47,497 nt of DNA from positions 1 through 47,497 of the forward strand of contig MEDY01000330.1 of assembly GCA_001724265.1 (NCBI GenBank), read 5' to 3'. The DNA comes from Rhizaria sp. SCN 62-66. Lineage: Eukaryota. The notes under the pieces were generated by a model. That model was not told the origin of the DNA and did not search any database. It saw only the letters and a program-made list of their open reading frames with translations. The position numbers and the translations under genes are program-made. Below are positions 1 to 47,497 of this stretch, piece by piece; the stretch's first letter is position 1; each line of letters starts with the position of its first letter.

Positions 1-3000
1 CGCGGCCGCCGCGTCGGCCGCGTCGCTGTCCGCGGGCGGTGGCGTGACGCCGACGTCGAGCGGGGCACTGGCGTTGAGCGCGCACAGCGGTGGCGGTGCG
101 CACGCGGCGACGCTGAACCTCACCAGCAGCACCACGGGTCCCGCGGGTTCCTTGCACACCACAACTATGAGCTCCGTTCACTACAGCACGATGACCAGCT
201 CGAGCACTCTCGGCAGCGGCAGTAGCTCTGGCGCCAGCAGCAGCAGCGGGAACGGCGACGGCTCGTCGTCAGAGGGCAACGTGGCGCTTGCCAAGGTGAC
301 CGCGATCCTGTCCCACCTCGGCTACGGGGCCAAGCAGCGCGCTGCGACGCCGCTGCCGCTGTGTCCGCTCTGCGGGCGCCAGGAGCCGCAGTTGCCACCC
401 AACGCGAACCCGTTTATCGTGTCCGCCCACGCCTCTGCTGCAGCGGCTGCGGCGGCCGCAGCGGCCGTCGTGTATGCGCCCGCCACCGAGGGCACTCCGG
501 CGGCTCAGGTCCGTCTTTGCTCTACGACTTGTAACGAAGACTTTTCGACTAAATAGCAAAGTCTAAACGTAAAACCTAAATATTTCATGGGTTAATTGTG
601 ATGTGTATTGCTATTACTTTGTTTCATTCTTACTTGTACTCATACCTGCCTCCATCATCCGATCATTGTTTTGTCCCTATGCAACCTTAGGGTCGTCGGT
701 CCGCGCTGTTCTCGCGCCACCTGCCGTGCGCCAGTCAGTACGCCCACCACCCGCCGTCGCTGCCGCACCACGGCCACCCGCGCGTGCCGGCCTCGACGCA
801 CACCGTGCTCAGCAACAACGCCGCCAGTCACAGCGCAAGCAGTGCCAGTAATGACAGTGTTCAGTCCCCGATGAATGCTAATAGTAATGTCAACGATGGC
901 GGCTCCGTGTTCTCGGCGGCCGTAGCCGCGGCGCACAGCGCCACCATCAGCCTCGGTCTCAGTCTTGGCAACAGCTCAAACAACAACAGCAGCAGGAACA
1001 ACAACGCCAACGACTGCTCGAACGCCGGCACGAGCAACCTCACCAGCAGCGTCGTGTCGTCCTCTGCGGCGACCGCGGCCAGCGTTCTCACTGCGTTCCA
1101 GCTTGCGCCCCTCGCTACCAGTTGCAACACCAGTAGCCAGAGCAACCCCGAGACGACCGAGAGCGATCTTTCTCGTAATCCTTCTAGTCCCCCTCTGGCG
1201 CCGCTCCCTGTGACCGCGCGCATCGAGCTCGTGGCCGCGCCTTCCACGGCCCCCGCGGTTGCGCCCGCGGTCGCCGCCGCGGCCGCCGTGGCCGCCACGG
1301 GCATGCCCGTCGGCAGCGCTCTCCCCGGTCAGCACCGGCCCCTCTGGGCCGCGGCCGCCGCCTACGCCACGGCGTGGCCGCTGCTGCGCTGGCGTCTGCG
1401 CGCCGCCGCGCCCGCGCTTGCCGCCGCGTTCCCGACCAGAGGCGGCGGCGGCGGCGGCGCCGGGGTAAGTGTAAGTGGAAGTGGAAGTGCCGCGGATGTA
1501 AGTAGCGTGCTGCCAACGCGCGTGTTTAACCCGCTCGTGTGGTGTTCGCTGCCCGCGACCGCGCACGTGCAGGTCTTTACCCCCGCAGCCGCCGCCACCG
1601 CCGCCGCGTTTCTCAAGTCGCAGCCGCGGTCTGCCGCCCCCGCCCTTGCCCAGAGCAGCCCCGAGCCCGCCGACGCGCTGTGCGCGGGCGAGAGCACCGG
1701 CTGCCCGGTGCCGATCGCGGGGCTGAACGTCGTCTCCGGCGCCGCCGCCGTGAGCGTTGGCGTGGCGCCCCAGCCGCTGTGCACGCTGCCCCCCGCGCCC
1801 GCGCCGCCGACGGCTTACGCGGGCCCCGACGCCGCGGCGAGCATCGTGTCCGCGCAGCCGCTGTCTGCGCCGCTGCCGTACCCGTTTCCGCCCTCCGCGC
1901 GGCTGGCCGTGGCGAGCGCGCGGGCGACGCGGCGCACGACGACGACCACCACCACGACGACCACGGTCATCATCCGCAACAAGACCGCCAAGCACGATGG
2001 CAACGGGAAGAAGCGGCGCGGCGCTGTGATGGGCAGCGGCAATAACAGCATCGCTGCCGAGAGCATCAACACCGATGACACCATCAACTCTGCTGCTGCG
2101 GCGGCGGCCGAGCTCAAGGAGGTCGAGACCGAGTCCGAGACGGCAACGGCACGCGAGACCGTTGTGACCCGTGTGGTCGTGCCTCTGTTCGGAGTCCGCC
2201 GCACGCAGGCCGCGCCGGCGCCGTTGTCGCTTGCCACCGCGGCGGCGGCGACGCCGCACATCGCGACCCCCGAGGACCTCCCATCCACCGCGGCGGCCAA
2301 GTGTGGTGCCACTGAAGACGCGCAAACCGCCGCAATCAACGGCGCTGGCGCGAGCCTGAGCTCCAGCAGTCTGCAGAGCTCCCCCAGCGGCGGCGCGCTG
2401 ACCGAGACGGAGGTTACGTCGAGCGTGAGCGTGGTCGTCGACTTCGCAGTCGACGCGCGTCTCTCCGCGGCCCCCGTCGAGCCCAGCCACGTGCTCTCCG
2501 TCCCGCTGCCACCGCTGTCCCTCGCACCGGCCCCTGCTGACGCCGCCGCCGCCGCCGCCGCTGCGGGCGCGGGCTCGGGCGGCGCCGGCGCAGTGTCCGT
2601 CGTCGCTGTTGCGGTCGCGGCCAGCGGCGGCAGCGGCGCGGGCGTCAGCTCGCCCAGTGCATCCGTGCTCGGCAGTGGCGCAGGCAGCGGCAGCCTCACG
2701 CTCAGCGGCGCGGGCGCCGGCGCGGGCGGCGCGGTGACTGCGCCCGCGATCAGCAGTGGCGGTAGCGGCGGCGGCGGCGCGGGCGGCAGCGCGGGCTCCG
2801 CGGGCGGCGGCGGCGTTGGCGGCGGCGTCGGCGGCGCGGGCGGCGGCGTGAGCGCCAGCGGGAGCAGCGCGCACCACCACGCGCTGCTGCCGCTGTCACT
2901 GACGGGGCCAGGGCTGCACACAGCGGGCGTGCCGTCGGCCGCGCTGGGGCTCGTGACCATCGCGGCGACCAGCAATAACAACATGAACGCCAGCAGCACC

Positions 3001-4488
3001 GCTGCTGCCGCCGCTGCTGCCGCGGGCAACAGCAACACGCTCGCTGCTCCCAATACCAGCGCAGTGAGCGTGAACAATAGCGGCAACACGTTGTTGACGC
3101 CGTCGTCGCTTACCCACGCGTCCAGCGCTGCGGGAAATAGCTCCGTCTCGGGGGCGGCCGCCACCGGCGCAGGTGCTGGCTCCGGCTCCGGCTCGCCGCC
3201 GCCGAGCTCGAGCTTCAGCGCAAGCGCCGCGGTGGCCGGCTGCCCGCTGTTCCTGTCCGCGCCGCTGCTGGCGCCGTCGGTGCAGGACCCGGCGGTGCTG
3301 CGCGCGCTCTGCTGGCGTGGCGTGCCGGCGGGCTACCGCGCGGCCGCCTGGCACGTGCTCGTGGGCTACGCGCGGCCCCCCGCGCACCCACCAGCGCCCA
3401 CGCCCTCGAACACCAGCGCCACCGCCGCAACGGCGACAACGGGCCCCGGCAGTGTGGCCGCTGTGGCGAGCGGCCTGGTTACTCCCAGCGTGGGCGCGGG
3501 TGCGGGCGCGGGTGTCGCCGCGGAGGACGCCGACGGCGCCGCTGGCGTGAAGCGCGACGCGCTTGTGAGCGCACTGGCGCGGTCTGCTGCGACGTCGCTG
3601 CCGACGCCCGTGCTGGCGGCGCCGCACCCCGTTCTGCCGCCTTCGTCGTACCCTCCCAACGCCAACGCCGGCTCCGCGGGCTCATCCAGCGCGGCCGCCG
3701 ATGCCGACGCCGGCGGCGGCAGCGGGGCCGGCGCGGGGACGGGACTCAGCGCTGCCTCGGCGACGGCGGGCGCGCTGTCGCGCCTCCCGCCGCGCCTGCG
3801 CCGCCGCCTCGAGTACCTCAGCAACACGGTCAACACGGACTGGGGCGTGGGACGGCCTGACTCGTTCCCGCACCTGCCCGCGCTGCGCGACGCAGAGGCC
3901 GCTCCGCCGGCGCTCGCAACCACCGCGGCCGCCGCCGCAGCGGCTGCGGCAGCGACCGCCGCAGCCAACAGCGCTGACCCGGCCGCCACCGCGGCCGCCG
4001 CCGCCGCAGCCGCGGAGGCCGACCTGTCGCTGTCCCTGGGCCTGGCCTCCGGCCCGTCGAGCTCGGGCCACTCGGCGACGGCGTCGCTGTGCGACTGGGG
4101 TCTGCTACCGCCGCTGGAGGCCGCGCTGGCGGGCGACGTGGCCGTCGATGTACCGCGCACGCTGCCCGCGCACCCGATCTTCCACTACCCACCGCTGCAG
4201 TCGCTGCTGATGCGGCTGCTCTACGTGTGGGCCGCGCGTCACCCCGCATCGGGCTACGTCCAGGGCCTCAACGACCTGCTCACGCCCTTCGTCACAGTGG
4301 CGCTCGAGCGCGCGACCGGTTTACCGCTGCGTGTGCTGGACCACCTCGCGGCCGTGGCGATTGGCCGGCCCTTCGCGTTCCCCTCGGATGCAGACGCCGA
4401 CCGCACGGGCTGTCTCGCCGTGGGCGCAGCTGTTGACGCAGCCAACGCGGCGGCGGCGGCGGCGGAATGCAACGAGGCCTTGTTCCTT

Positions 4489-4535
<47 letters not shown>

Positions 4536-6759
4536 TGGAGCGAGTAACTACGCTGACTCGCCCGCGTTCGCTGACGACCACAGCAAGAACTACAACTACA
4601 CCTCGCACCGCCGCTCCGTCACGACCTTTGCCAGCAACAGCAGCAGCGGCAGCGGCGGCAGTAGCGGCAGTAACAGCGGCAAGAGCATTCTGATCCCCGG
4701 CATCCCTGCCAGCGACGACCTGGACCTCGACTGGGCCGAAATCACCGCCAAGCGCTCCACCGCGGGCAACGGTGCCGCGCCGCACGCCAGCGCACTCGGC
4801 AACAACGGCACCAGCGCTGGCGGCACCAGCGGCATCGGCAGCGGCAGCGGCGGTGACGCGTGTGACTCGTGTCGCCGCGCCCGCCGCGCGCTGGTGCTGG
4901 CCTCGGCCGCCGCCAACAGCGCGGCCAGCGGCGGGACCGGCGGGCGCCCCGTGGCGCCGACCTCAGCCGCGAGCAGCAACACTGCGCACAGCGGGCGCGG
5001 CGACGTGTACTCGCCGCCGTCGCTCTCGGCCGACGCCTCGCTCGACGGCGTCGTGTCTCGCGTCGAAGTCACCGACGTCGCCACCGCCGCGCGCGTCTTC
5101 CGCGTCCTCACGGGCGCTTCGGCGCAGGCCGCGGGCCCGCTGTCCCAGTCCGCGGTCGAGCACGCGCTCGTGCGCGGCGCCGACAGCACCGCCGCACTCA
5201 GCGGCGCGGGAGCGACTGAGACGTGCGGCTGCGGCGCGGCGCTGAGCCGGTACCGCGCGTATGTGTACTACTTCGCGCACGCTAACGCGCTCTCGGCCGC
5301 GACCATCTCCGCGGGCGCTGAGGCGCTCTCGGGCACGCCGGGCGCCGCTGCCGCGCTGCCCGCCGGCTCACTAGCGGTAGCCTACCCGTTCCACCTCTAC
5401 GCGGATCCTGCTGCTGGCGACCGCGATAGCACCGTGCTGCCCGCCGCCGCGCTCCCCACCGCCGCCGCCGCCGCTGCGACAGCGGCCGCCGCCACCGCAG
5501 CCGCAGCCGCCGCATCCGCAGCCGCGCCCTGCAGCAACGGCTCCGGCGCTGCGTCGATGAATGCTGTGTCGACTGCGCTGCCGCGGCACGTGGTGTACCC
5601 GGGCGTCGCCCCGGGCACGGTCGTGGTGATCCCTGCGACCGCGACGGCGGCGCGCGCTGCACTCGACGCCGTGCTGCAGATCCCGTCGCTTTGGCACGAC
5701 GTCACCGCGCAGCTCCCCACCTCGGCGCTCGCCACGCTCGCCAACTCCACCACCAGCACCAGCGCAAGCACCAATCCTATGAGCGGCGCGTCCAGCTCTG
5801 CTAACGGGACTGTGGTGCTCGGCCTCCGCGCTGCGGCGGCGTCGGGGCTGGACCCCACGGCGGGCGGCGCGACCAACAACGGCCACGGCAGCGACGCGCT
5901 GTCTCTGCTCGGCTCGTCCAGCTCCACCAGCGTGCGCGGCGCCTCGCTGCGCGCCACCGCGGCCGCCGCGGGCGCCTCGGGCGACCGGCGCAACTCCGTC
6001 GTTGGCGGCGGCGCCGGCGGGAGCAGCGTGACGACAGTGCCGGTGCCGCCGCTCTTCACCCGCGCGCTGGCGTCGTCGCCGCTGCTGCAGACGGTCGAGG
6101 CCGACGCGTACTGGACCTTCTCCGCCGTCGTCGAGTCGATGCAGGACCACTACACGTTCGCGCAACCGGGCGTGCAGCGGATGATGTTCGCGTTTGAGGA
6201 CGTGCTGTACCGCGTAGACCCCGTGACGCACCGCCACATCACCAAAGAGCCCAACCACATTCCGTGCATGCAGTTCGCGTTCCGCTGGATGGCTTGTCTG
6301 CTCATGCGCGAGCTGCGCCACGACCTCACGCTGCGCCTCTGGGACACCTGTCTCGCTGAGGGGCTCGGCGCCGCGGGCGGCGCGGCCGCCACGGACAGCA
6401 GCGCGACCTCGGCGGCTGCGCACAGTAGCTACCATAGTGTGGCGACGCGGCCCAGCGCGATGAGCGTAGGCGGCGGCCAGCCCGTGCTCGCGGGCGGCAG
6501 CGCCATGGCGCCCGGCGCAGACGTCACGCGCGGCGGCGGCAACAACGGCTTCATCTCCTTCTTCGTCTACGTGTGTGTCGCGTTGTTGTTGCGATTCAAG
6601 TCGACGCTGCTGACGCTTGACGCGCCGGACAAGGTGCTGCGCTTTCTGCAGCACCTGCCCACGCAGAGCTGGACGGCAACCGACGTGGAGATGCTTGCCA
6701 GCCAGGCCTACGTCTACCAAGCCATGATCCAAGCCAAGGACAAACAGGAGCACCGGTGA
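1..6759 (+). CDS. TBC1D22: TBC-domain Rab GTPase-activating protein of the TBC1D22/Gyp1 type, 5'-truncated, heavily expanded by low-complexity insertions; exons <1..508, 691..6759
   Basis: Ordered TBC1D22/Gyp1 blocks: LRALCWRGVPAGYRAAAWHVLVGY; VAVDVPRT (IxxDxxR arginine finger); WAARHPASGYVQGLNDLLTPF (YxQ glutamine finger); VEADAYW...QDHYTFAQPGVQ; QFAFRWMACLLMRE; LRLWDTCLAE; FLQHLPTQSWT..DVEMLASQAY. A phase-0 GT..AG AT-rich intron at 509..690 joins ORF 44..556 in frame to ORF 784..6759. Ends TGA. Confidence 0.92.
4489..4533 (+). repeat. CAG/CAA trinucleotide tract encoding Q15 inside the TBC-domain insertion
   Basis: Read directly from the sequence (cagcaacaacaacagcagcaacagcaa...). Confidence 0.9.
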
Positions 6760-7065: not shown

Positions 7066-9478
7066 AGGTTCATAAGTTCACGCGCATCAGTGTCTCACAC
7101 ACGCCTGAACGAATCGAAGCACATGTACGAAGAGTTAGATTTGCACTGTTGACCTGGCTGCGGAATGGCATGTGTCTCAAAGCACTGCAACACATTTTCA
7201 TCAAAGGGATGCGCACTATTATCGCTTGTTGACGCAGTCTCCCCCCTCACATACGACATCACAAGCCCGACTGGCACCGCGCCGCGCAGCAAAGTGGCAT
7301 CGCAAGGCTTGAACACAATAAAACACGGTGAATCACACGCCCCCTGACCACTCGTTTTCTTACGAGGCACAACTTCGCGAGGATACATCAGTACGGTGCC
7401 AACTGGATATGTCACGTTTTCACTGGCAGCGGGCGCCGTGTACTCACCGTAAACAATGTCGATCTTAGGAAGTGTGATGGGCACCTTGGCACAGGAGGGT
7501 CCGGAGTGATAATGATGTAGTGTGACAAACGGTAGATGAGTGCCCGGGGACTGGCCAGAAGGAACAAAGCATTGGTGGAATTGGTAACCCAATGCGTAAC
7601 TCTGAGCTGCAGTGCGGAAGTGTGCGGCGTTATGAGGAAACTGCTTGTCGTCAAGACGGATCACCATGTGATGCTGGTCGTGGCCTGTGTTGCTTGCATT
7701 ACGGAACTTAACACGCATGACCACATCAGATGTCATGTTCGTCTTCAACTTCTGCATAGCGTATGTCAGAATGCGCTCGCGAGCCTGTGTTTGCAATAGC
7801 ATAAGTGCCGCAGGAGATGGGAACCCATAATCCCTCGCAGGAGCGGGAGACGGGGTGTACCCATCTACCGCTTCTTTTGCCTGTCGACAAGGATATCCAC
7901 ACTCCTCTAGGCTACATGCCATGTGAGAATCAAATGCAGCCTCCCAATCATCAGACAGGACAACTGACTTCCATGGTGCCTCTAGGACCGCCTCTAAAGC
8001 TGTCCTTACGGAAACTTTTGCTGTGGCTTCCGCAGCCGCCTTTGCAGCCCCTTCCGCCTCTGCAAAAGCCACAGCAGCAGCACTTTCTGTCCTCAAAATC
8101 CAGTCCACGGGAACAGCTTCCGCCAGCATATGCAGCGCGCGTTTCTCATGGAAAACGTCTGGAAACGCCACAGCGACACGCACACACCACTTCGCATCTA
8201 TAGACGCTGTCGTTACTCCCTGCCCGTCTGCCATCTGTGCAAAGACAACAGCAGCGGTGCGCTTATTGACATCTGTAAGCAGCATTGTAGCAACAAGACC
8301 AGAGCTGTCAGTGTTGTCATTGTCAGACTGAGCTCCTCCGCTGCTCTTGCTGTCATCATTGCGCAGCACTGTAAAGATTGCACGGACAGTGCCAAACTCG
8401 CAGGTGTTTTTACTAACAGCGTCGCCACAGTCAACTAGATCAGAAGTCGCAGAGATGTTCTTGCCAGTATCATTCGCTTTGTTGTCATTATCAATGCCAT
8501 CTTCAACGTCGTCGCTGTCCCCACTCTCGATCAGTTTGGTAACAGCCCTAGCACGTGCTTTGCAGGCGTCATAGCGTGTAGCAAGGCTTGCCGATAGAAT
8601 ATTCGCCGTGACCTCACCGACAAGCGCACATTTGCACTGCGGAAAAGGTGTTGCAGATGTTGTAAGACTTGAACCTTCGTTTGCGTTTGCATTGGACGGC
8701 TTGCCTTCAATAGCTGCGCCCGTAACGGCTCTATCTTCGCTATCTTGCAGTTGTGCCTGTTGAGACAGAAGCACTGGAGAAGCCCCGCAACCGCAGCCGC
8801 GGCGCACAGAGCACGCGAAACGCACGCCGCACAGCTCAACCGTGCCAATCTCAGCAACGAAGCCGTCGCCGCTAGATGCAGAGAGCAAGTCGGCGAGTGG
8901 CACATCAGCTTCGCACGTGACCTCGCACGGTACGAACCCATCAGTCGCATCGGTGGTCGCTGCCTCAAACGCAGCACGTGCAGCAACCCAGGGTGTGTTG
9001 GCAAGCGTATTATGGATCGCTTGCTCTTTAGGCCCACTGTCATCGAGGTCAACGCCTCCTGAGAAAGGCCAGACGGGCCGTGACGCTAGGAGCCGACTGA
9101 GACGTGTGATACTTGGCGCATCGGTGGCGCCAGACATGCTCGTAAGTGTGTTTTGCGTCAGCGTTAGAACCTCCTGCTCTTGCTTGGTGCGCTGTGACAG
9201 AAAACGTCGGAGCTGTTTTGACAACGCTGACACGGGAGCAAGCGCTTGGGATGGATACTGCTTAGTTGTGGCTAAAAGTGTGGCCAGCTTGGTTTCAGTT
9301 TGCGTGCGTAGGGCTTCAGTGAGTGCGATCTCATCCTTGAGCTGTTGCGCCAGTGTGGCAATGCGCGGGGCGAGAGTGGCAGCGTGAGAGCGGAGCTTAG
9401 CATACTGGGCGGCAACGGGGCGGATGGCGTGGTTATAGTGTTCACCGTTGATAAGCGCGCAGTGGCTGCAGACAACGT
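7066..9478. repeat. Copy 1 of a ~2.4-kb same-orientation duplication (copy 2 at ~45040..47497)
   Basis: Long near-identical nucleotide runs are shared, e.g. tgttgacctggctgcggaatggcatgtgtctcaaagcactgcaacacattttcatcaaa and gagtgcgatctcatccttgagctgttgcgccagtgtggcaatgcgcgggg. Similarity continues past the stop codon (cataagttcacgcgcatcagtgt). Confidence 0.95.
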
Positions 9479-10164
9479 TGACACATGTGTCGCACCAAAA
9501 AAGCATAAGCACGGGCTCGCCATGCTTGTAGCACCACTAGCACGTATAATACAAGTATGAATCATAGAAGGTAGTATGAGTGAGGACCAGTTGAAACAAC
9601 AAGTTTCTACATCGAAGAGATATCAATCCGAGCTTCAGTTGTAAGCGCTCGTTTTCGGAGAAGCACGTATAACACAGCAGTTTAATGTTGGCGCTGTATG
9701 ATATCTGCAGTCATGCTTGCTGCTGAGACGTACACTAGGGTCGCGGTGCGCGGACTGATTGAGAACGGAGACAGCAACACCATTTTTAGTACTACCATCG
9801 CTGCCACGGCTGTTGCCCTTGCCTGATGGAGTGTTGTGGCCATGGTGAGCGGACGAGAGATCGTCTTGCAGTTTAGTTTCGGCCTATGGCAGGAGAAGTG
9901 GTGAAGCAACATCAATGTTTAACAGTCGGTGAGATTTTCGTCTAAGTAAAGAGGCGATAGTGGTCTTTTTGATGCAACGATATTGAAGTTTGAGAGTCAG
10001 TTGATGCAGAGGAAGGTTATTTGCAAAATATTGAGAGCGAGCACGAGGAGTCGTAGCACTGCAATTACCTTGAAGCAAGCTTGACAAAGACTTGGGGGGC
10101 GATCTTTGCCTGTGGACTGCATTGTTTTGCCACATATCTTACAGATCGACACTCGTGATGTCAT
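7095..10164 (-). CDS. ~895-aa protein: N-terminal C4 zinc-binding motif, B-box, coiled coil, degenerate MATH-like region (TRIM37-like), then a C-terminal degenerate cyclophilin-like module; exons 10164..10069, 9883..9734, 9536..7095
   Basis: Exon 1 encodes MTSRVSICKICGKTMQSTGKDRPPSLCQACFK (CxxC-x15-CxxC). Two phase-0 GT-AG introns (donors GTAATT and GTACGT) keep the frame. B-box2 pattern CYKH-x9-CDTC-x4-CSHC-x6-HYNH. Heptad-rich helix follows. The C-terminal segments MVIRLDDKQFPHNAAHFR / GYQFHQCF / IVYGEY / VGTVLM / DSPCFIVFKPC / LLRGAVPVGLV follow the order of cyclophilin motifs. Ends TGA. Confidence 0.8.
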
Positions 10165-10809: not shown

Positions 10810-13467
10810 TCACCCGAACGGAGCGTACGATATCGTTGACGCCGCATGCTTTTTGCTTTCGCGACTGCAAGTTCCGAGCTGAGCAAATGACTCGAACCAC
10901 GCCCTCATTTCGCCGTCAAACGGCGGCATCTCGTCGGAGGAGTGTTCGCCAGCGCCACCATCGCTCGCAACCTCGCCTGCCCGTGCGCACTCGCGCACGT
11001 GGCCCACCGGCACAGCGCCCCGCAGCAGTGCCGCAGCGCAGGACTTAAACGCGATGTAATAGGGAATGGCCGAGCACGATTGCGGGGCCACCGTGCGCGG
11101 GACAAACAGCACCGTGCCGGGCGGGTACACCGTTGCAGTCTCGGCGGCATCGTCCTGCGGCGGCACGGTGTACTCGCCGTAGAGCGTGTCCCGCAGTGGT
11201 AGCGAGATCGGCATCGACGCGCACGGAATCGCCTCGCTGCCAGAGTACACGGTGACAAATGGCAGCTGCGCATGCGGCGTCGAACAGTCAGCAGGCGCAA
11301 AGCACGCGTGCACGTGGCTTCCCAACGCCGACTTCTGAGCCGCGACGGCGAAGTGCGCTGCGTGGCACGGCAGCACGCCTGCGGGAAACCGGATCACAAA
11401 AGTCCGCTTAACGCGGTCGCGCGTCCTGGCGTTGTACAGCTCGGCATGCATCGTGACCTGCCGCTCCAGCTTCTTTACGCGCTGGCTCGCCAGAATGCTC
11501 TCGCGCGCGCGGCACTGCAGCAGCGCCAGCGCCGCGGCGGTCGGCCCGGCCGCCGCAGCAGGCAGTGGCGGGTGAGTAACTGCAGTGTACTCGTGCGCGG
11601 CCGCGGAGTACTTGTACAGCGGAGGGTATCCCGCGCGCGCCAGTCCGTGCGCAACGAGAGCGTCCAGTGCGTTTTCCCAATCGACGAACGACTGGGTGAA
11701 TTCCCGCGCCTCAACCGCGGCCTCTGCCGCAGCCGCCGCCGTCGCGAGCTGCGCTGGAACAGTGGCGTCGTTGCCGCCGGTCGCCGTTGCAGTTAAACCG
11801 GCGCGTTCGAGCACAGGCAGCAGTTGCTGCAGCTCCTGTGACACTGGCCCGTCGGCTGTCGTACAGTCAGCTGTCATACAGTCAGCGCAGCGCATCAGTT
11901 CGATGGCTTGGCGCCCTCGTGCCGCAAGATACTCAGCGTTGACCGCGTCAAGAAAACTAGCGTCGCCGTTCTCAGCCGCCGTGGACGCGAGGAGAAGGAT
12001 GCGCCGCAGCACGCTTATCGCGGTGACTGCAATTTCGCCGCTGCCGCTGCCGTTACCTACCCAGAGCGCACATGCCATCACCGTGCGCGCCACAAACGAC
12101 GTCGCTTTACTGTCAACCAAACACTGCAGTAAAACCGCTTTGTAGTCAGCTCCAGCATCGGCGCTGTCCTCTGGCTCTGAGTCCGTGTCCTCTGGGATCA
12201 TAAAAGCGGCGCTGACAACCCCCGCGAGCGTTTGCACTGTATACGACGCAATTTCCCACAACACGGGCAGTTTAACCGCGCTCTGGTCAAGAGCATAGCC
12301 CAGCCGCAGCATGATCTGTGGCACGCCAGCATTTACCGCGCGCTGCGCCAGCGCCGGGGAGACTGAGACGAGGCGCGCGAAGAACGCGTTGAAAACCTTC
12401 CAGTTCTCGTGGCTAACAAAGCGAAAGCGCGAGCTCATCGTTCGCAGACGGACAACGCGGGGCGCGGTAAAGACGCGCTCGACGACGGTGACGTTGCCCA
12501 TCGACGCTGCGAGGCACACGAACCGGGGCACGGTGACGCGCGCGTCGCTGAAGGCATCAAAGTTCCGCAGGACGAACTCGGTTGCGTCACTCGTCGCAAC
12601 GGCCTCAATGTCCGCCGCAAACCGCGCGGGGTCGCTGTGGAAGACGTGGACGAGTGCGGTAAGGGCGGCGCGGATCAGTCCGAACACGACGTCATCGACG
12701 TCATTAACGTCGCCGTCGTCGCCGTCGTTGCCGTTATCGTCGTCGGCGGCGACGTTATCGTTAGCGCGTGGGAGGGCGGTGGCAAGCGCAAGGCGGAGCG
12801 CAGCCACAATTGCAGAGAGACTCTCCGTAGAGAGTAAGCTGGCGCCAGAGCCGGAGCCGGAGTCAGCGGCGGCGGCGGTGGCGGCAGGAGTCATGGTGAT
12901 GGTGGCCACGAGCTCGACCAGCTTGCCGCTCTCCTTAAGCGCCACAGGTGCAGTATCACCGTCGCAGACGAGGAGACAGCGTATGCGTGTGATAATGGCG
13001 TCGAGCACCGCGGGCGTGGCTAAACGCGCGCGTGCGGGTCGGTAATCGCGGGCGAGCTTGATCACCATGTCCAAGAGAGTCAGTTTCACGTTGTGAGGGT
13101 CGCGAGGGATGGCAAGCACGTCACACACGGCCTCAATAGCGCCGCTGTCGAGCAGCGCGGCGCAGCTGTCGTCCGCACGCGTGAAGTGGGTGAGCGTCTC
13201 GGTCACAGCCTGAGCCGTGAGTTTGAGTGCGGCGTACTCGGTTGAGGCATCGCTTGCGGCAACGGGGAGCTGCTTCAAAAGGACGAAGAGGACGTCGCTT
13301 TCCACGCACATCTGGATGCATTTCGCAAAGTCTTTGTCTCCTCGTATGTTCTCGAGAACTGAGCGAAGCCTCTAGACATTGATGTACGTGTGGGGATTAC
13401 ACGAAGGCGAGTTGACAAGGTCAAACAAGCTCGACTGAATCTCCAGAACATTCAGAGGCATAGGCAT
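10810..13467 (-). CDS. ARM/HEAT-like helical-repeat protein carrying the same C-terminal cyclophilin-like module; start uncertain (ATG 13467 with an in-frame TAG at 13374..13372, ATG 13311, or a spliced upstream exon)
   Basis: 833-aa ORF 13311..10810. The N-terminal part has ARM-like motifs (ALLDSGAIEAVCDVL, RAVNAGVPQIMLRL). The C-terminal part aligns by eye with the 7095 gene: DWENALD...LARAGYP, ALALLQCRARESIL, FVIRFPAGVLPCHAAHF, LPFVTV, LYGEYT, YPPGTVLFVPR, LLRGAVPVGHV, PFD. Ends TGA. Confidence 0.75.
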
Positions 13468-18706: not shown

Positions 18707-20332
18707 TCACTCCGGCTTGACCGTAGCCTCTACGCACGCCTTGGCCTCTTTGGCCTTGTCCGCGACCTTGGCTTTGTTGTTGGCGACAGTGCGCCGGTAC
18801 AGCGCCTTGGCCTCCGCAGCGCGCTGGCGAGCGTCGAGCGCGTCGTCGTCGAGTTCGAACCCCAGGCCGAGCGCAAGCCTGTCAATCACGACCACGTCTG
18901 ATGGCTGCATGGGGCGGAACGCGCGCACGCGGGTCATCAGGTCGTTATAGCCCTTTTCGGCATCAGCGCCGGTGTGAGCACCAGCATTACCGACAGAACC
19001 AGTGCCAGCGTTGGCCTCGGCACCACTGCTATCGTTGCTGTACCTCGTGTTGACGCTCTTGACGGGCGAGACAAAGCCGTTGGAGTCAGTCACATACTGC
19101 TGCAGTTGCCTCTGGTTCTATTTCTGCTGCTGTGCCGCATCGTTGGCGCGTTCTTGTTGCTGTTGCAGCTCCATCGAGGCACCGTGGAGCTGGAACCGGC
19201 TGATATCACGCTGCCTCCTGCGCTCTAGCATCGCCTCCACATCAACCTCAATGCTCAGCGAGTCATTTGACACAGAACCAGTGCCCTTGCCTGCAGCTGC
19301 CGTCTTACCGTTGCCAAACACGCCCCCGCCGCCGTTAGCAGCGTTGGCGGCGTCAGAATCCATCTGCTGACCTTGTTGTTCGAGAAGGGTCTCGCTGACG
19401 GCTTCGCGCGCGCGCTCGAACTCGGTGTTCAGTAGGTCGGCCCGGTAGCGCGCGTAGTCGAGCTCGAGGGAGCCGTCGCCGCCTGTGGCAGTGCCGCCCA
19501 GGGCGAGCAGCTCGTCGGCCGCGGTCACGACGTCATCGCTGCTGCTGCTGCTGCGGCGGCTGCTGCTGCTGCTGCTGTTGCTGTTGCTGGGGCTGCGGCT
19601 ATGAGTAGGGTCAGAGGCGGGACTGTGGGCGGGTGGCGTGGGGCGAGGGCTCGCGCTAGAGGCGGCGTGCGCGTCGCTAGCAGGAGCGTTGCTGCTGCTG
19701 TTGTTGTGGTGAGAGAACGAAGATGCGGGGCGCAGGGAGGAAAGACCACCACCAGCCGTCATGCGACTGCTGTTACTACTGCTGTTGCTGTTGCTGCTGT
19801 TTGCGCCAGTTGGTGGATGTGTGGACCGATGCTTGAAGGATTGCGCGGCGCGGAAAAAGAACTCATCGTCAGAGTCCTCCTCGTCTTCGTTGTATGAACC
19901 AGTCTTACTCGCATTCGCTCTCGCACTAGACGCGCTCGCTGCATTAGTGGTTGCTGAAGGCTTTGTCGTGATTGTGACTGAGCCGCTGCTCCTGGCTACG
20001 ACTGAAGATGCGGTTTGGGCGGCAAAGGGCTGCGGTGCTGGTGAAGCGGCACCTGAGACCTTGTCGGTATTACCGCCGCTGGTACCGGGATTTACGGTGC
20101 TGTTGTTTGCTGGAGACGAGCTTGAAGTGCTCATGTGACGGCACGGGTAAGGGTAAGTAAGCAGGACAGAGGCCACGCCACATGTCGTTGCGGTAACCCG
20201 CAGCGGGCCACCCGTAGCGCTCAGTGCTGGGGTTACGGTCGAGTAGGTTGCGAAGGCGCTGGACGGGACCAAAGCGGAGGCTATTGGCACCAGCCGCGTT
20301 GAGAGAGAGCGGAGAGCCCGCGCTGCGCGCAT
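18707..20332 (-). CDS. Hypothetical low-complexity protein with a mitochondrial-presequence-like N-terminus; one frame of ~541 codons interrupted by an in-frame TAG at 19120..19118
   Basis: MRAARALRSLSTRLVPIASALVPSSAFATYST is Arg/Ser/Ala-rich with no acidic residues. ORFs 19118..20407 and 18707..19093 share a frame and read QQQK*NQRQLQQYVTDSNG across the junction, with no intron-like sequence. AT-rich 3' flank starts only after the TGA at 18707. Confidence 0.65.
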
Positions 20333-20956
20333 GGTTTGCCACTTTAAAAAGAGCATTGAAGAAACAAGAGAAAATGAATTAGTAACAAACTGCACGATAT
20401 TGTACAATAATAGTGACTACGTCACTTTTAACGATCAAATGAAGGATTTATAGAAGACTCAATGTTCGCCGTCAGTAGGTGACCGTGAGACGGCTTGTCG
20501 GTCGGTTGTTGCACTCGCATTTGCTGACCGTTCGCAGGAATTCATCCGTGCACAATGCAGGCATCGTACAAACAAATTTAAACTTGATATCATAAATAAA
20601 CTGAATTAGAATCTTAAGTTCATTTAATACGCACTCAAAATAACGATGTTGATGCCACATAAATATGTCAAGAAGTGAGACAGCACCTTGGCTATTTTGC
20701 CTAGGCGCTTCCCTTTCCCCGTCTTCGTCTCACATCATATATGTCTCTCCCTTTCGAGTGCAGACCCCACAGGGCCCTTACCTCGCGTTTAACGTGCCCC
20801 GTTCTGTCCTTGGCTTGCCTGTTGTCAGCCCGGGTATCGCTCTCTGTACAGACGGACACCCGCCACACACCTCGGGCAAGGCGAAATCCACCAACCTGTC
20901 CCCTTCCTTCGACCCTCTGCTGCACTGCAACTACCTCCGCTCCGACTCCGACAAAG

Positions 20957-40897: not shown

Positions 40898-41554
40898 GAG
40901 GAGACAACGCTAGGGTGAAGCTAGACGCGACGGTTGTGATCAAACGAGTCGCTTTCTTCGAGTCGGACAGAAAGAGATTTGAATCAAGGTATTTACGGGA
41001 ATAACAGTTAGCTGCTGAGCTGAAATACAAAATACAAAACACATCGTTCTTGTGATCTCTTAGATAGTTATTAGAATACAAATTTACGATCAAAATAAGG
41101 CGGTAGCACGAGGTCAATCGGGTTGTTGATCGAACGAAGCTCAGAGCCGTTGGCGAGTGGTGGTCGATTTTCTGCGAACCGTGGCCCTCGGCCGGAAATG
41201 CCGACGTGCTTGTCGAGGCTTGACCGGATCACAATTGCCTTTATTAAAGCAACATTATCCCTACGAAGTCGATTTAGTTGTTGTATTCCAAAAGAACTCA
41301 ATTGTTAGGTTTTGAATGTATTTTACGATTTATGGTCGAAATGGTTTCAGAGCAAGAAACTTGTCTTTCCGAGACTGGGTCATTGTCACTTGAGCTTGCG
41401 TCCGGTATATTCATTTTTGACTTGATTTGACGCCCCATTATCACAGTTCTTGGTTCAAAAACTTGAACACGACACGTTCACTTACCCAAGCTCCACATAT
41501 CCGCTGGTCTTTGTGCTTTCACTGGCTTTTCCTCTCAGTTTCTTCGCTTCCGCG

Positions 41555-44472
41555 ATGTCGCAGCCCTCGGTCGCGTCACCGCCGACAGAGTCGGAGCTTC
41601 AAAAGCTCTCTAAAGAGGACCTTATCCGTCTTCTCCTCACACTCACTCCTACCACCGGCTCCTCTGCGACCTCCGGTGCGTCTGCGACCTCCAATGAGGT
41701 TACAGATTTCTCCACAGAGCCCTTCTCGCGCCACACACTGTTCGACGAGGACGAAGTGCCGACCAAGATCTTATTCGACGGCCACACGCTGACTCCCGAG
41801 CACCTCGTCGCGATCGGCTACAACCGTGACATCGAGGTCGACCTCTCGCCCCTCGCATGGACCCGCGTGCGCCGTTCGCGCCAGATCGTCGACAACATCC
41901 TCGCCCGCAAGGAGACTGTGTACGGCATCAACACTGGTTTCGGCAACTTCGCCTCGGTCCGCATCAACGACGACCAGCTCCGCACCCTGCAGACGAATCT
42001 GATCCGCTCCCACGCCGCGGGCGTTGGCGAGCCCCTTTCGGTCGAGCAGGCGCGCATGCTCCTCGCACTGCGCATCAACGTCCTCGCCAAGGGCCACTCC
42101 GGCATCCGGCCTGAGTCCCTCCAGACGCTGCTCCAGTGCCTCCGCAAGAACTGCATCTCGCGCGTGCCGTGCCAGGGCACCGTGGGCGCGTCGGGCGACC
42201 TGGCGCCGCTGTCGCACCTCGCGCTGGGCATCCTCGGCGAGGGCCAGATGTGGGACCCGCGCACCGAGCGCTACGCCGACGCCGCCGCCGTGCTCGCAGC
42301 GCACGACATCGAGCCGCTGCGGCTCGAGGCCAAGGAGGGGCTCGCGCTCATCAACGGCACGCAGCTCATTGTCGCGCTTGGCTGTGAAGCCGTTGTGCGC
42401 GCCTCGCGCCTTGCGCGCCAGGCTGATGTTGTCGCAGCGCTGACTGTGGAGGCGTTGCGCGGATCGACCACGCCGTTTCATGCCTTCATTCACCAGGCGC
42501 GTCCTCACCGCGGACAGGTATGGCAGCCACTCATATATCACGGGAAAAATGAACAAAGATAGAATTTATGTATATCTCAATTTGCGTATCATATTTAATG
42601 TACCTATTATTCATCAAAGTTTAATTTTATTCCATTTAATTAACGTATTGTGCTTCAATTCCTTTGTTTTATGTAATATCCGCAGGGTCTCGTTGCTGCG
42701 CGCATGCGCCAGCTGCTGGGCTGGGCGCGCGGCAAGAGCGAGATCGCCGCCTCCCACGCCAATTGCTCCAAGGTCCAGGACTCGTACACTCTGCGCTGTA
42801 TCCCACAGGTTCACGGTGTCGTCAATGAGACGGTGCATTTCGTGTACAAGATTCTTCTCACGGAGATGAACTCGGCCACGGATAACCCCATGGTGTTTCC
42901 CTGGGGCGCCGCCGCCGACGTCCACTCGCTCTCGCAGGCACGCACTCACTTTGCGCTTAAAACAAGTCATATTAGCTGGATTGTGTTATATTGTTCTAAA
43001 TTTCACTTGTATTGTCATGTCAACACATTATTTATCAAAATGAAGTTTACTCACTAAAGTACACTGATGTTTTTTTGCTCACATGCTTTATGACATATGC
43101 AGGGCCAGATCGAGGCTCTGGAGCGCAAGGCGCGCGTGGAGGAGGCCCGCAAGCGCCGTCTGCTCCGCACCCGCGGCCACGGCGGCGACGACTCCGACCC
43201 CGACGACGCCGCCACCGACAGCGCCAGCCACGCGGGCGAGTGCACGCCGCGGTCCGCCGAGGCCGCGGCGGCGTTGGCCGAGGACGAGGAGGACGAGGAC
43301 GAGGACCACGTGCTTGCCGAGGCGCGGTCGTTTAGCTCGCTCGCGGACATGCACGCCTCGCAGCCCGACGCCGGCGCCGGCGCTGCTGGAGGTGTCAAGC
43401 GCATTTACACCGACAACAGCGCGGGCTGCAGCAACGCGGTCAAGGCAAGCGCGTGCGGGGCCAGTGCGCCGCAGCAGGCGGCGACGCCGGCGCGGAGTAC
43501 ACTGGTTGGCGCGTGCTGCCAGCCCACATCGACTGAGGCCGCCGGCGAGGACTCGGTCCCCGCCAACAAGTTCACTCTCCAGGTATGCAATTGCTCACAA
43601 TCGACACTAAAGGACTCTAATATGCTCGAACTAGTGTATATTTTTGTATTTATATTAAACGCAGACTTAGTATACTAAATTTCAATTTTAATTCCTAAAG
43701 CTCACATTATTACTTCATGTATCTTGCTACATCTCCTACTTTCTCTCAGGGCCGCGCCGCTGCATTTGCGGACTACGAGCACGTGGACGAAGGCATCATC
43801 CTCTCCGGAGGCAACTTCCACGGCGAGTACCCGGCCAAAGCGCTCGATTTCCTCGCCATCGCGATCCACGAGCTGGCTGCGATCTCTGAGCGCCGCATCG
43901 AGCGCCTCGTCAACGGCCACCTCTCCGGTCTGCCGGCGTTCCTGGTCCGTGAGGGCGGGCTCAACTCGGGGTTCATGATCGCCCATTGCACGGCCGCCGC
44001 GCTGGTGTCGGAGAACAAGGGTCTCTGCCACCCGGCGTCAGTGGACTCCATCTCGACCTCGGCCGCGCAGGAGGACCACGTCTCCATGGGCGGTTGGGCG
44101 GCTCGCAAGTGCGTGCGCGTCGTCTCCCACGTCGAGCAAGTGCTGGCCATCGAGCTGCTGTGCGCCGCGCAGGCCGTCGACTTCCTCCGGCCGCTGCGGT
44201 CGACGCCGGCACTGGAGCGCGTGCATGCCGCCGTGCGCGCGCGCGTGCAGCCGTGGGACTGCGACCGGTACATGGCGCCCGACATTGACGCCGCGCACGC
44301 GCTGCTCAAGAGCGACGCCGTGTGGGCCGCCGCAAAGGGGCACGTCGACGCGAAGCTCCACGCGTTTGTGCTTTCTCCCGGCGGCGCGCACAGTGTTGGC
44401 CACGGCAGTGTTCCGCGCGCTGAGGCCGCCGCGGGTGTGGAAGCCACGTCGTGCGCTGCGAAACGCGCATAA
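41555..44472 (+). CDS. HAL: Histidine ammonia-lyase (histidase), ~805 aa including a ~185-aa internal insertion; exons 41555..42517, 42686..42937, 43103..43582, 43750..44472
   Basis: [37 protein letters not shown] (MIO-forming Ala-Ser-Gly), [90 protein letters not shown]. Three phase-0 introns. Ends TAA. Confidence 0.96.
42938..43102 (+). other. Probable non-canonical GC-AG intron in HAL
   Basis: Composition switches from GC-rich to AT-rich at CAG/GCACGC, which is the local CAG/GTACGY donor consensus with T>C. The 165-nt length matches neighbouring introns and a phase-0 join to the acceptor at 43102 keeps the frame. Confidence 0.7.
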
Positions 44473-44644
44473 GATAATTTCGCGCCGCAACTGTGTTGGT
44501 GGAAAAGCTAATCTACTTGCCAGTTACTGTGTACTCTGAAGGAGCGAAGTGAAGAGTAGTGCGATTTTACTCAACTCGTCAAAAAATAGAATACATATTG
44601 TATGATGGAATTGCAGCAACGATTATTTATTCTTTGGGTGAATC

Positions 44645-44972
44645 TTGCATGGTCATGTGTGGACGCGTATCGAGTTCTCTTACATTTGGGAGTCACCAAA
44701 TGTCACTCTAGTAGCACGGATATGATGTCACAAAAAACATTTTGTTCAACGTATATTCACTGCATATAACGCAGGTAATATATCGGATGCGTTTGTTAAC
44801 CTTCATTTTCCGGCAAAACTCACACGCAATAGCTGCATTTGAACTTTGTGGTGAGGAAGCAAGATAGGGGAATTATTCCACAACATCAGTCATGTTCGTG
44901 ATGATGAAAAAATACTAATTCGAAAAGTTAAGGTTGCATGTCTGGACGCTTATTCAAGTTCTCCTACCATTT
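44645..44972. repeat. Degenerate ~40-nt direct repeat pair in the convergent intergenic region (~44645..44687 and ~44934..44972)
   Basis: ttgcatggtcatgtgtggacgcgtatcgagttctcttacattt versus ttgcatgtctggacgcttattcaagttctcctaccattt. Confidence 0.55.
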
Positions 44973-45070
44973 ACATCATTCTTTGCGGACTTTAAAACAG
45001 ATTCTATTGGTTTAAGTTGTGCTGACGTTGTAGTTGTGTAAGGTTGCATAAGTTCACGCGCATCAGTGTG

Positions 45071-47497
45071 TCACACAGGCATAAACTTCGAAAAAAACAT
45101 GTGCGATTGCGACCTGTACGAAGGGGTAGAGTTGCATTGTTGACCTGGCTGCGGAATGGCATGTGTCTCAAAGCACTGCAACACATTTTCATCAAAAGGA
45201 TGCGCACTATTATCGCTTGTTGACGCAGTTTCCCCCCTCACACACGACATCACACGCCCGACTGGCACCGCGCCGCGCAGAAAAGTGGCATCGCAAGGCT
45301 TGAACACGATAAACCACGGGGAATCAGCCGCCCCATCAATTACACACATTGTATCACGAGGCACAACTTCGCGAGGGTACATCAGCACTGTGCCAACTGG
45401 ATATGCCACGTTTGCGCTGGCAGCGGGCGCCGTGTACTCACCGCAAACAATGTCGGTATCAGGAAGCGTGATGGGTGACTTGGCACAGGAGGGGCCGCAG
45501 GCACGATGATGCAATGTGACAAACGGCAGACGCGTGCCTGGGGATCGACCTGAAGGAACAAAACATTGGTGCAATCGGCAACCCAAAGCCCCACCTTGAG
45601 CTGCAGTGCGGAAGTGCGCTGCGTTATGGGGGAACCGCTTGTCGTCAAGACGGATCACCATGCGATACTTTTCGGACGTTTTTTTGTTTGTGTCAGGTAA
45701 ATCAACTCGCATGACCACATCAGATGTTATGTGCTCTTTCCTCAACTTCTGCAGAGCAAATGCCAGGATGCGCTCGCGAGCCTTTGTTTGCAGTAGCGTG
45801 AGTGCCGCAGGAGGTGGGACTCCATGATCCCTTACAGGAGCGGGAGACGGCGTGTACGTAAATGATGCCACTTTTATTCGACGAGGGTACCCACACTCCT
45901 CCAGGCTGCAAGCAATGTGTGAATCAAATGCAGCCTCCCAATCACCAGACAGTACCACTGACTTCCACGGCGCTACTAAGGCCGCTTCTAAAGCTGCCCT
46001 TTCGGTGACTTTTGCTGCGCTTTCCGCAGCTGTCTTTGCAGCTGCTTCTGCATTTGCAGCCGCTGCAGCGGCGGCCTTTTCCGCAGCTTCTGCAGCCGCC
46101 TTTGCAGCAGTCTTTGCAGCAGCACTTTCATTCCTCAAAATCCAGTCTACCGGAACAGCTTCCTACAGCATATGCATCGCGCGGTTCTCATGGAAAACAT
46201 CTGGAAACGCAACAGCAACACGGACACACCATTTTGCATCCCTGAGCGCTGTCATCACTCCCTGCCCGTCTGTCACCTGTGCAAGGATAACAGCAGCGGT
46301 GTGCTTACTGACATCTGTAAGCAGCATTGAAGCGACAAGACCAGAGTTTTCGGTGTTGTTATCGTCAGACTGAGCTCCTCCGCTGCTCTTGCTGTCATTA
46401 TTGCGCAGCACTGTAAAAGTTGCACGGACAGTGCCAAACTCGCAGGTGTTTCCACTAGCATCGTCGCCACAGTCAACTAGATCAGAAGTCGCAGTGGTTT
46501 TCTCGCCAGTTTCCTTTGCTTCGAGATGATTGTCAATGCCATTTTCAACGTCGTCGCTGTCCCCAGTCTCAATAAGCTCAGTGACGGCCCTAGCACGTGA
46601 TCCGCAGGCGTCGTAGCTTGCTGCAAGCCTTGCTGACATAATGGTCGCTGTGACCTCACCGAGAAGCGCACATTTGCACTGAAAAAAAGGTGTTGCAGAT
46701 GTTGCAAGACTTGAAGGTGCGTCTGCGTTTGCATTGGATGGTTTGCCTTCAACAGATGCGCCCGTAACCACTCCATCTTTACTGTCTTGCAGTTGTGCCT
46801 GTTGAGACAAAAGCAACGGGGAAGCACCACAACCGCAGCCGCGGCGCACAGTGCACGTGAAACGCACGCCGCACAGCTCAACCGTGCCAATTTCAGCAAC
46901 GAAGCCGTCGCCCTTAGATGCAGAGAGCAAGTCGGCGAGCGCCAGATCGGCTTCGCACGTCACCTCACGCGGTACTAACCCAGCAGTCGCATCGGTGGTC
47001 GCTGCCTCAAACGCAGCACGTGCAGCAGCCCAGGGCGTGTCGGCAAGCGTATTATGGATCGCTTGCTCTTTTGATCCACTGTCTTCGAGGTTAACGTCTC
47101 CTGAGAAAAGCCAGACGGGCCGTGACGCTAGGAGCCGACCGAGACGTGTGATACTTGGCGCATCGGTGGCGCCAGTCATGCTCGCAAGTGAGTTTTGCGT
47201 CCGCGCTAGCGCTGCGACAAAAAGAGCCGCAGTTGCGATGCCAACGCTGACAGGGGAGCAAGTGCTTGGGATGGATACTGCGCTGTTGTGGCTGAGAGTG
47301 TGGTCAGCTTGGCGTCGGTCTGCGTGTGTAAGGCTTCAGTGAGTGCGATCTCATCCTTGAGCTGTTGCGCCAGTGTGGCAATGCGCGGGGTGAGTGTAGC
47401 AGCGTGAGAGCGTAGCTCAGCGTGTTTGGTTTTGACGCTGCGGATGGCGTGGTTATTGTGCTCACCGTTGATAAGTGCGCAGTGGCTGCAGACGACG
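45071..47497 (-). pseudogene. Damaged paralog of the B-box/MATH-like/cyclophilin-like gene at 7095..10164; 5' end lies outside the window
   Basis: Collinear homology from the B-box (VVCSHCALINGEHNNH) to the C-terminus. A 22-nt deletion at 47208/47209 (equivalent to 9167..9188) shifts the frame into a TAG and then a TGA. A second in-frame TAG at 46165..46163 replaces the paralog's GCG (Ala). Terminal TGA at 45071. Confidence 0.8.

Follow-up and report, generated by a model that had tools for sequence, protein, structure and literature searches.

The TRIMCyp proteins of primates combine a RING with a retrotransposed, fully recognisable and active-type CypA, and use this cyclophilin domain for target binding. 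TRIM37-like proteins of TRIM Subfamily A (RING-B-box-MATH) are also found in several groups of non-animal eukaryotes, and RING-less forms occur in Trichomonas, according to excerpts of Marin 2012 (PMC3503706). A protist protein with a B-box and a MATH domain is, on that account, not new in itself. Here we describe a gene for a B-box protein from Rhizaria sp. SCN 62-66, located in a stretch of 47,497 nucleotides (contig MEDY01000330.1 of assembly GCA_001724265.1) that is referred to below as the window. The gene lies on the minus strand, consists of three exons (10164..7095, 895 codons) and ends in a C-terminal module that is predicted to adopt a very divergent cyclophilin fold. We read the product as a RING-less TRIM-like scaffold with a pseudo-cyclophilin binding module, the latter taken from a lineage-specific unit, and we give this reading a probability of about 0.55. 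A first-pass annotation of the same DNA, made from the sequence alone, had listed a C4 zinc motif, a B-box, a coiled coil, a beta-rich region, an Ala-rich linker and a series of cyclophilin-like motifs, and all of these elements were recovered at the same positions on the minus strand.

The C-terminal module of 284 amino acids, which spans residues 530-813 of exon 3, was modelled with AlphaFold2 from an alignment of 24 family sequences, with a predicted local distance difference test score (pLDDT) of 86.4 and a predicted template modelling score (pTM) of 0.90. The model opens with the two helices of an N-terminal extension, at module residues 2-16 and 46-71 (pLDDT mostly 73-97). After these the predicted elements follow in the order b-b-a-b-b-b-b-short helix-b-a-b (b, strand; a, helix), which we take to be the order found in cyclophilins. 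The module is thereby predicted to form an eight-stranded barrel with two capping helices, as expected of a cyclophilin and as the first-pass annotation had anticipated. In a Foldseek search of the PDB with this model 38 of the 47 listed matches name a cyclophilin, and the remaining nine are chains of large complexes or the C-terminal domain of Nup358, with titles that do not name the chain. The best match was the Mimivirus cyclophilin 2ose (E 3.1e-4). Most matches had a probability of 0.92-1.0 and a target-normalised template modelling (TM) score of 0.45-0.54, at an identity of 10-17%. Against the viral library BFVD only four matches had E<0.01, all of them peptidyl-prolyl isomerases (PPIases) of giant viruses, and the others had a probability of 0.10 or less. 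Furthermore, 13 out of 30 language-model neighbours of the module in the Atlas belong to PF00160 clusters.

Several results weigh against this assignment. The root-mean-square deviation in the Foldseek matches was high (8-13 Å) and the query-normalised TM score was about 0.33, so that the fold call depends on a single unvalidated prediction. PF00160, the family of the barrel that the first-pass annotation had expected, was absent from all 24 members even at E<=10. Likewise, the family profile found no cyclophilin in the PDB at E<=10, and no cyclophilin was evident among the 134 matches of a profile search against 1.84 billion representatives. Comparison by hhalign with eleven aligned bacterial cyclophilins (E. 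coli PpiB and ten encoded on plasmids) was not significant, with E values of 0.014-0.051 and probabilities of 1-3% over 29-36 columns (E 0.051 with the whole profile; E 0.014 and a probability of 3% with a domain-only profile), and PpiB alone gave E 0.85. Together with the low identity of the Foldseek matches, these figures speak for the alternative that the likeness to cyclophilins is a prediction artefact or the outcome of convergence, the module being a beta-barrel that arose independently and is unrelated to them.

We regard this alternative as improbable. The order of the predicted elements matches that of cyclophilins, two Foldseek libraries (PDB and BFVD) return almost only cyclophilins, and the language-model neighbours, obtained by a partly independent method, include PF00160 clusters. 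In addition, the sole hhalign alignment lands on the b1-a1-FHR motifs that had earlier been matched by eye, pairing MVIRLDD..FP.NAAHFR...G..H with IVIEL...AP.TV.NF...FHR, and it extends collinearly. Its register against the bacterial cyclophilins is the same as that proposed in the first-pass annotation, and the motifs named there coincide with the most conserved columns of the 24-sequence alignment. In a permissive hhalign alignment of low confidence, module residues 82-259 are collinear with PpiB residues 1-162, and GTVLMYPR is paired with GTLAMAR, PWFIVF with SQFFI and LLRGA..VPVG with FLD..YTVFG. On the strength of the model, we conclude that the module is a highly diverged domain with the cyclophilin fold and does not represent any known kind of prolyl isomerase.

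Two of the listed PDB matches of the module, ranking second and seventh, are the axonemal doublet-microtubule chains 9e5c_3h (Trypanosoma brucei flagellum) and 9fqr_HZ (bovine sperm). Both chains have about 290-310 amino acids, near the length of the module, and the listing does not give their identity.

Inspection of the active site points to loss of the original activity. The residue that follows an invariant His, a position that presumably corresponds to R55 in CypA numbering, is Q in nine members, T in eight, K in two and another residue (A, N and G among them) in the rest; it is R in none of the 24. The first-pass annotation had noted a substituted Arg in this one sequence and had suggested a binding module instead of an active isomerase. 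Because the position is never R in the family, a non-catalytic module is the better reading. Four of the nine invariant columns of bacterial cyclophilins (R43, F48, Q51 and Q97) are without an equivalent in the module according to the extended, low-confidence hhalign alignment. The active-site Arg and the Phe/Gln/His set that characterise cyclophilins are not retained, and the GxxxQGG and SQFF motifs have also been lost from the barrel.

At the same time the module shows striking conservation of its own. H125, C127, E169, A109, F111 and G121 are invariant in all 24 members, C153 is kept in 22, C216 in 23 and the GAVPVG motif in 23. Furthermore, H125 stands opposite the His of FHR in the alignment with cyclophilins. 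Conservation of this strength could mean a new catalytic or metal site and not passive binding, which counts against the reading given above and makes a live rival of the proposal that the cyclophilin-like barrel of the module has become an enzyme of a new activity or a domain for metal binding, which the B-box protein would deliver. It may be argued that a mere scaffold would not be conserved so tightly. On the other hand, the module contains no known catalytic motif and matches no other enzyme class in Pfam, the PDB or the Atlas, and we consider such an enzyme or metal site unlikely. The barrel would most likely serve as a pseudo-enzyme for binding or docking. Biochemical work has a clear target in the invariant His, Cys and Glu.

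The module has no Pfam family, and none of the matches in three database searches carries a name or an NCBI or UniRef source. A word-indexed search with the module returned 23 relatives, none of them named and one with a precomputed Pfam domain, a kinase. The 134 representatives found in the profile search are all consistent with the family itself and come from metagenomes only. The same module is also encoded by the adjacent gene in the window, where it follows an ARM-like N-terminal domain that has no match in Pfam; the two modules are 38% identical over 274 amino acids (BLASTP, E 1e-38). Using home-made hidden Markov models (HMMs), we sorted 49 proteins with a full module into 30 of ARM-type, which is the commonest architecture, ten of B-box-type, three others and six short fragments. 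Among the three others, P0012 has a kinase domain, P0010 has a repeat-rich N-terminus that to the eye resembles a coiled coil, and the N-terminus of P0033 is of no recognised kind. A Pfam scan of ten further family members gave nothing at E<=0.001, and the only entry at 0.01 was SEN2-like_N in P0036, below the cut-off with E 0.0099. Since this module is joined to ARM, kinase and various other N-termini, its target is probably a single ligand or complex common to all of them, to which different N-terminal effectors would be brought.

A quick tree of the 49 modules left 22 of 45 inner branches open. The B-box-type requires five changes on this weakly resolved tree, of which the starred branches force at least two. 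The existence of diverged B-box-type members (P0025, P0043 and P0061) implies that the fusion happened some time ago. Synteny with the ARM-type neighbour was not seen upstream of the B-box-type copy in locus L002, one of the 12 related metagenome loci that were used for comparison. The first-pass annotation had spoken of a TRIM-cyclophilin fusion in the sense of TRIMCyp. This is misleading, as HMMER finds no match to cyclophilins and the module is mostly found on ARM-like proteins, including that of the adjacent gene. The coordinates of the features are collected in Table 1.

Table 1. Features of the B-box gene, its neighbour and its second copy in the window.
Feature	Position	Strand	Remarks
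Exon 1	10069..10164	-	32 amino acids; start codon and C4 zinc motif, not a RING; peptide MTSRVSICKICGKTMQSTGKDRPPSLCQACFK
Intron 1	9884..10068	-	185 nt, GTAATT...ATAG; inferred from conservation only
Exon 2	9734..9883	-	50 amino acids; low-complexity Ser/Gly/His-rich spacer
Intron 2	9537..9733	-	197 nt, GTACGT...CTAG; exons 2 and 3 in different frames
Exon 3	7098..9536	-	813 amino acids, then TGA stop; stop-to-stop open reading frame 9536..7095
B-box2-type zinc finger	9414..9533	-	Exon-3 residues 2-41
Heptad-rich helical region, probable coiled coil	9132..9416	-	Exon-3 residues ~41-135
Beta-rich middle domain with long low-complexity inserts	8127..8939	-	Possibly a MATH/TRAF-like sandwich
Ala-rich EAAAK-like helical linker	7950..8087	-	Length variable among copies
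Conserved helical N-extension of the C-terminal module	7728..7949	-	DWEAAFDSH...; two helices; conserved with the barrel in 24/24 members
Divergent cyclophilin-like barrel lacking the catalytic Arg	7098..7727	-	Predicted by AlphaFold2 and Foldseek
Neighbouring gene, ARM-like N-terminus and the same C-terminal module	10810..13371	-	Module at 10813..11682
Second B-box-type copy, damaged	45074..47496	-	Frameshift near 47209, in-frame TAG 46163-46165; runs off the window end

The gene belongs to a eukaryote that has spliceosomal-type introns and occurs in runs from wastewater and activated sludge. Within the exon-3 open reading frame (ORF) the first Met lies inside the B-box, the ligands of which begin nine residues further upstream. 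As the zinc ligands C2 and H5 precede this Met, the gene needs upstream exons. All junctions are of phase 0, the donors being AAG|GTAATT and AGT|GTACGT, and the codon immediately 5' of exon 3 is a TAG that doubles as the AG acceptor. In support of the upstream exons, the exon-1 peptide is kept upstream of the B-box in four of the 12 related loci (84% identity in L007, 78% in L002, 62% in L004 and 41% in L008) with all four Cys retained in each, and the exon-2 peptide is conserved in L007 (78%) and L002 (74%). The C-x2-H opening of the B-box upstream of the Met is conserved in every locus that reaches that far. In L004 the splice junctions AAG|GTA, AGT|GTACGT and TAG| are retained, with intron interiors that have diverged and shortened.

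Read contigs from three runs (X1, X2 and X4) cover the B-box gene in part. One contig of the cDNA-labelled run X1 joins 9734 to 9536, skipping exactly the 197 bases of intron 2 with GT..AG on the gene strand (CT..AC on the plus strand). This contig has a depth of 3.1 and 41 letters on its shorter side. No joined contig was found for intron 1 among the read contigs. Unspliced contigs over both introns are also present in RNA-labelled runs, which tells against the splicing model, and those of the polyA run X4 span the boundary of intron 2 and exon 3 and lie inside intron 2. Splicing of intron 2 is supported but not proven, because X1 itself was rated 'probably DNA' and the X4 contigs are unspliced. 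A different model, with the TAG at 9537-9539 as a sense codon extending exon 3, was rejected: the 58 codons upstream of it contain no Met, have a composition unlike that of coding sequence (GC content of 0.40 at first codon positions, GC1, and of 0.32 at second positions, GC2) and end at another stop.

The Cys pattern of exon 1 is C-x2-C-x15-C-x2-C, for which the best Pfam match was a weak one to Zn_ribbon_TiaS (E 0.021). The RING (C3HC4) that defines TRIM/RBCC proteins was not found: no RING family appeared in the Pfam scan of exon 1, in agreement with the first-pass annotation, which had reported no canonical RING. It was also absent from all 11 family members scanned with Pfam, though most of these ORF calls do not include exon 1. 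Exon 2 had no match in a Pfam scan. The B-box, in contrast, is of the kind expected in TRIM/RBCC proteins. Pfam PF00643 (zf-B_box) was matched over profile positions 6-42 of 42 with E 2.6e-4 and 21.5 bits, against a gathering score of 24.1, and the same family was matched in nine of the 11 members. All eight ligands are present (C2, H5, C15, C18, C23, C26, H33 and H36 of exon 3) in the pattern C-x2-H-x9-C-x2-C-x4-C-x2-C-x6-H-x2-H.

The best sequence match of the family profile in the PDB was the B-box and coiled coil of TRIM3 (E 0.025 over 106 positions). With a single sequence, phmmer gave 12 weak matches in the PDB, eight of them (E 0.12-4.1) to TRIM3, TRIM72, TRIM28 or PML. TRIM37 was not among these weak matches of the B-box region. 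A home-made, crude heptad score peaks at residues 41-130, at a value reached by one of 300 shuffles, and the stretch holds three Pro/Gly in 95 residues. Prediction of a complex of two copies of residues 1-175, in which the supplied alignment was not used, scored 0.00 with a pLDDT below 50 for the partner's own fold, and speaks neither for nor against dimerisation. Judged from the sequence, the N-terminal half lacks a RING and comprises a TRIM-type B-box2 with a probable coiled coil behind it. The earlier description as B-box plus coiled coil is supported by the PF00643 match, the TRIM3 alignment and the heptad score, but the label 'TRIM37-like' is not, as the weak PDB matches neither show nor exclude closeness to TRIM37.

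For the middle domain (residues ~170-485, modelled from 11 sequences) the AlphaFold2 prediction was poor, with a pLDDT of 45.6 and eight strands split by low-complexity inserts. In the Foldseek search of the PDB, 11 of the 44 listed matches were SPOP or TRAF4/6 (E 0.16-1.8), and six of the top seven were the MATH domain of SPOP. These alignments cover about 260-270 columns, with a target-normalised TM score of about 0.4-0.5 for most and of 0.19-0.25 for the longer SPOP chains. A point against a MATH assignment is that it stays below threshold, no PDB match reaching E<=0.001 with a model of this quality. Pfam MATH was unmatched in the window protein and in every family member scanned, and an Atlas search with the middle domain gave no usable match. 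The first-pass description as 'MATH-like' is at best weakly supported, by the poor model and the sub-threshold SPOP and TRAF matches. We put the odds of a MATH/TRAF-like sandwich at about even.

The middle domain is followed by the Ala-rich linker, which has 44 amino acids here and about 100 or more in P0007 and P0006 of the family alignment. It looks like a rigid spacer of tunable length. EAAAK-like repeats were also observed in the linker equivalents of P0004, P0006, P0007 and P0009.

Taken in order, the 895-residue scaffold would consist of the C4 zinc motif, a disordered spacer, the B-box2, a coiled-coil-like helix and two putative recognition domains. The B-box and coiled coil probably oligomerise. 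The first recognition domain would be a beta-sandwich, maybe MATH/TRAF-like, and the second a helical hairpin packed on the cyclophilin-fold barrel, with the two kept apart by a stiff EAAAK-like helix of variable length.

The window contains a second, damaged copy of the B-box-type gene. In a tblastn search with P0001 the match to this copy changes from frame -2 (residues 21-116) to frame -1 (residues 124-813); the identity is 74%, with one stop, and this copy is probably a pseudogene. The locus L010 is 100% identical to window 43423..46301. Seven further loci, several of them interrupted by in-frame stops or shifts of frame, are 70-78% identical at the protein level and could be either paralogues or copies that belong to related strains. 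The ratio of non-synonymous to synonymous substitution rates (dN/dS) against the window gene was 0.44 for L001 (804 codons), 0.48 for L004 (468) and 0.43 for L007 (355). Divided by region, the ratios against these three loci were 0.14-0.36 for the B-box and 0.47-0.67 for the middle and cyclophilin-like parts. The window copy is intact and evolves under moderate purifying selection, within a family that shows turnover.

These observations bear on the idea that the protein belongs to an expanded and fast-evolving recognition family. It would then be a sensor resembling those of innate immunity, convergent in function with TRIM5/TRIMCyp, and would use its MATH-like and cyclophilin-like domains to bind a structure of a parasite or virus. 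Two copies within one 47-kb window, the number of related loci (12, the seven close ones among them), the damage to several copies, the variable linker length and a dN/dS that is fairly high outside the B-box would all fit such a family, as would the giant-virus cyclophilins among the closest structural matches. However, the protein has no RING or other effector domain, the loci may represent several strains and not paralogues, and the binding face of the module is highly conserved, unlike a typical arms-race surface. The ARM-type, as the commonest architecture, has no immune flavour either. We find an immune sensor very unlikely, and prefer the RING-less scaffold with a pseudo-cyclophilin binding module.

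The in-frame stops in these copies form an observation of their own. They are carried by L001, L002, L005, L006, L009, L010 and L012 and by the window at 46163-46165. With P0001 alone as query on the 12 loci, all ten in-frame stops were TAG and none were TAA or TGA. With all proteins as queries there were 13 TAG and five TGA, and the ten sites backed by at least eight queries are all TAG. In an alignment of eight close loci, three of seven TAG columns (four of eight TAGs) stand opposite the Gln codons CAA or CAG, and one of them requires two changes from CAA. Among out-of-frame stop triplets TAG is the rarest, with 66 against 334 TGA and 100 TAA. Elsewhere in the window, at 18707..20434 on the minus strand, the ORF 19118..20416 ends at a TAG within the Gln-rich AAQQQK*NQRQLQQ and is followed by 137 more open codons to a TGA, with coding-like GC content at first and third codon positions. 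The remaining long ORFs in the window stop at TGA (nine) or at TAA. Since 18707..20434 stays coding-like past its TAG and the other long ORFs end in TGA or TAA, TAG is perhaps not a normal stop here. The in-frame TAGs are explained either by pseudogenes with an odd bias or by TAG being a sense codon, perhaps for Gln, in this lineage.

The boldest combination of these elements would be an independent TRIMCyp-like sensor. It would be a RING-less lattice-former of B-box and coiled coil, equipped with MATH-like and pseudo-cyclophilin domains, from a fast-turnover family with many dead copies. Such a protein would sense a parasite or giant virus by a surface that is rich in proline or resembles a capsid, with TAG maybe read as sense in the same contigs. 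We think of this as a long shot. If true, it would mean that protists possess a cell-autonomous immunity convergent with the restriction of retroviruses in primates; more generally, TRIM-like sensing would extend to protists if the family proves to be one of recognition or immunity.

Two other genes of the window may be mentioned. At 41426..44472 on the plus strand lies a histidine/aromatic ammonia-lyase (HAL) gene (PF00221, E 1e-92) that is interrupted by two or more introns; HAL-like sequence, read by eye, goes on in the ORFs 42677..43057 and 43699..44472. At 691..6759 on the plus strand there is a single-exon ORF of 2022 codons with long Ala/Gly/Ser/Gln runs; close to the C-terminus it encodes a RabGAP-TBC domain (PF00566, E 2.9e-28). 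Its coding GC content is about 75%, against about 50% in the neighbouring B-box gene. Rfam and tRNA scans of the window found nothing.

Compared with the cyclophilins of PF00160, including the Mimivirus protein 2ose, the module shares the predicted eight-stranded barrel and the order of elements. Remnants of cyclophilin motifs are also seen (F/A-P-x-N/T-x-x-x-F, the His of FHR, Y/I-G-E, G-T-x-x-M, F-F/I-I/V and L-x-G). Unlike cyclophilins, it is without the catalytic Arg, without the GFMxQGG motif and without the Gln of SQFF, and it scores under all HMMER thresholds. Much longer loops bring the barrel to about 210 amino acids instead of about 165, and a helical hairpin is added at its N-terminus. 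The Mimivirus cyclophilin is reportedly a protein without PPIase activity. The module would add an unnamed and very divergent branch to the cyclophilin fold, and looks like a pseudo-enzyme that has been reused as a portable unit.

With TRIM Subfamily A the window protein has in common a single B-box, a helical region, a beta-rich domain with sub-threshold MATH/TRAF matches, a non-animal eukaryote as host and the precedent of RING-less forms. It differs from this subfamily in having no match to Pfam MATH and no TRIM37 among its sequence matches, in the low-complexity inserts of its middle domain and in the cyclophilin-like module. No such C-terminal module is mentioned for Subfamily A in the excerpted text of Marin 2012 (PMC3503706), and the word 'cyclophilin' occurs zero times in the paper. 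In the literature, as far as excerpts show, no protein with a B-box and a cyclophilin-like domain was found outside the work on primate TRIMCyp.

Like TRIMCyp, the window protein has a B-box and a coiled coil followed by a C-terminal cyclophilin-fold domain, which is here a predicted one, and the cyclophilin domains of TRIMCyp are among the Foldseek matches of the module (4dgc_E, 4dgb_A and 4dgd, E 2e-3 to 1.5e-2). Unlike TRIMCyp, it has no RING, no match to cyclophilins at the sequence level and no catalytic Arg, and it has an extra middle domain. The insertion of a canonical cyclophilin gene into a TRIM gene, as in TRIMCyp, is not what is found here: the module lies in the same exon as most of the protein, has its own helical extension and also occurs in unrelated architectures. 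It is only in its architecture that the window protein resembles TRIMCyp, and it would represent a second, independent route, outside the animals, by which a B-box/coiled-coil scaffold gained a cyclophilin-fold domain.

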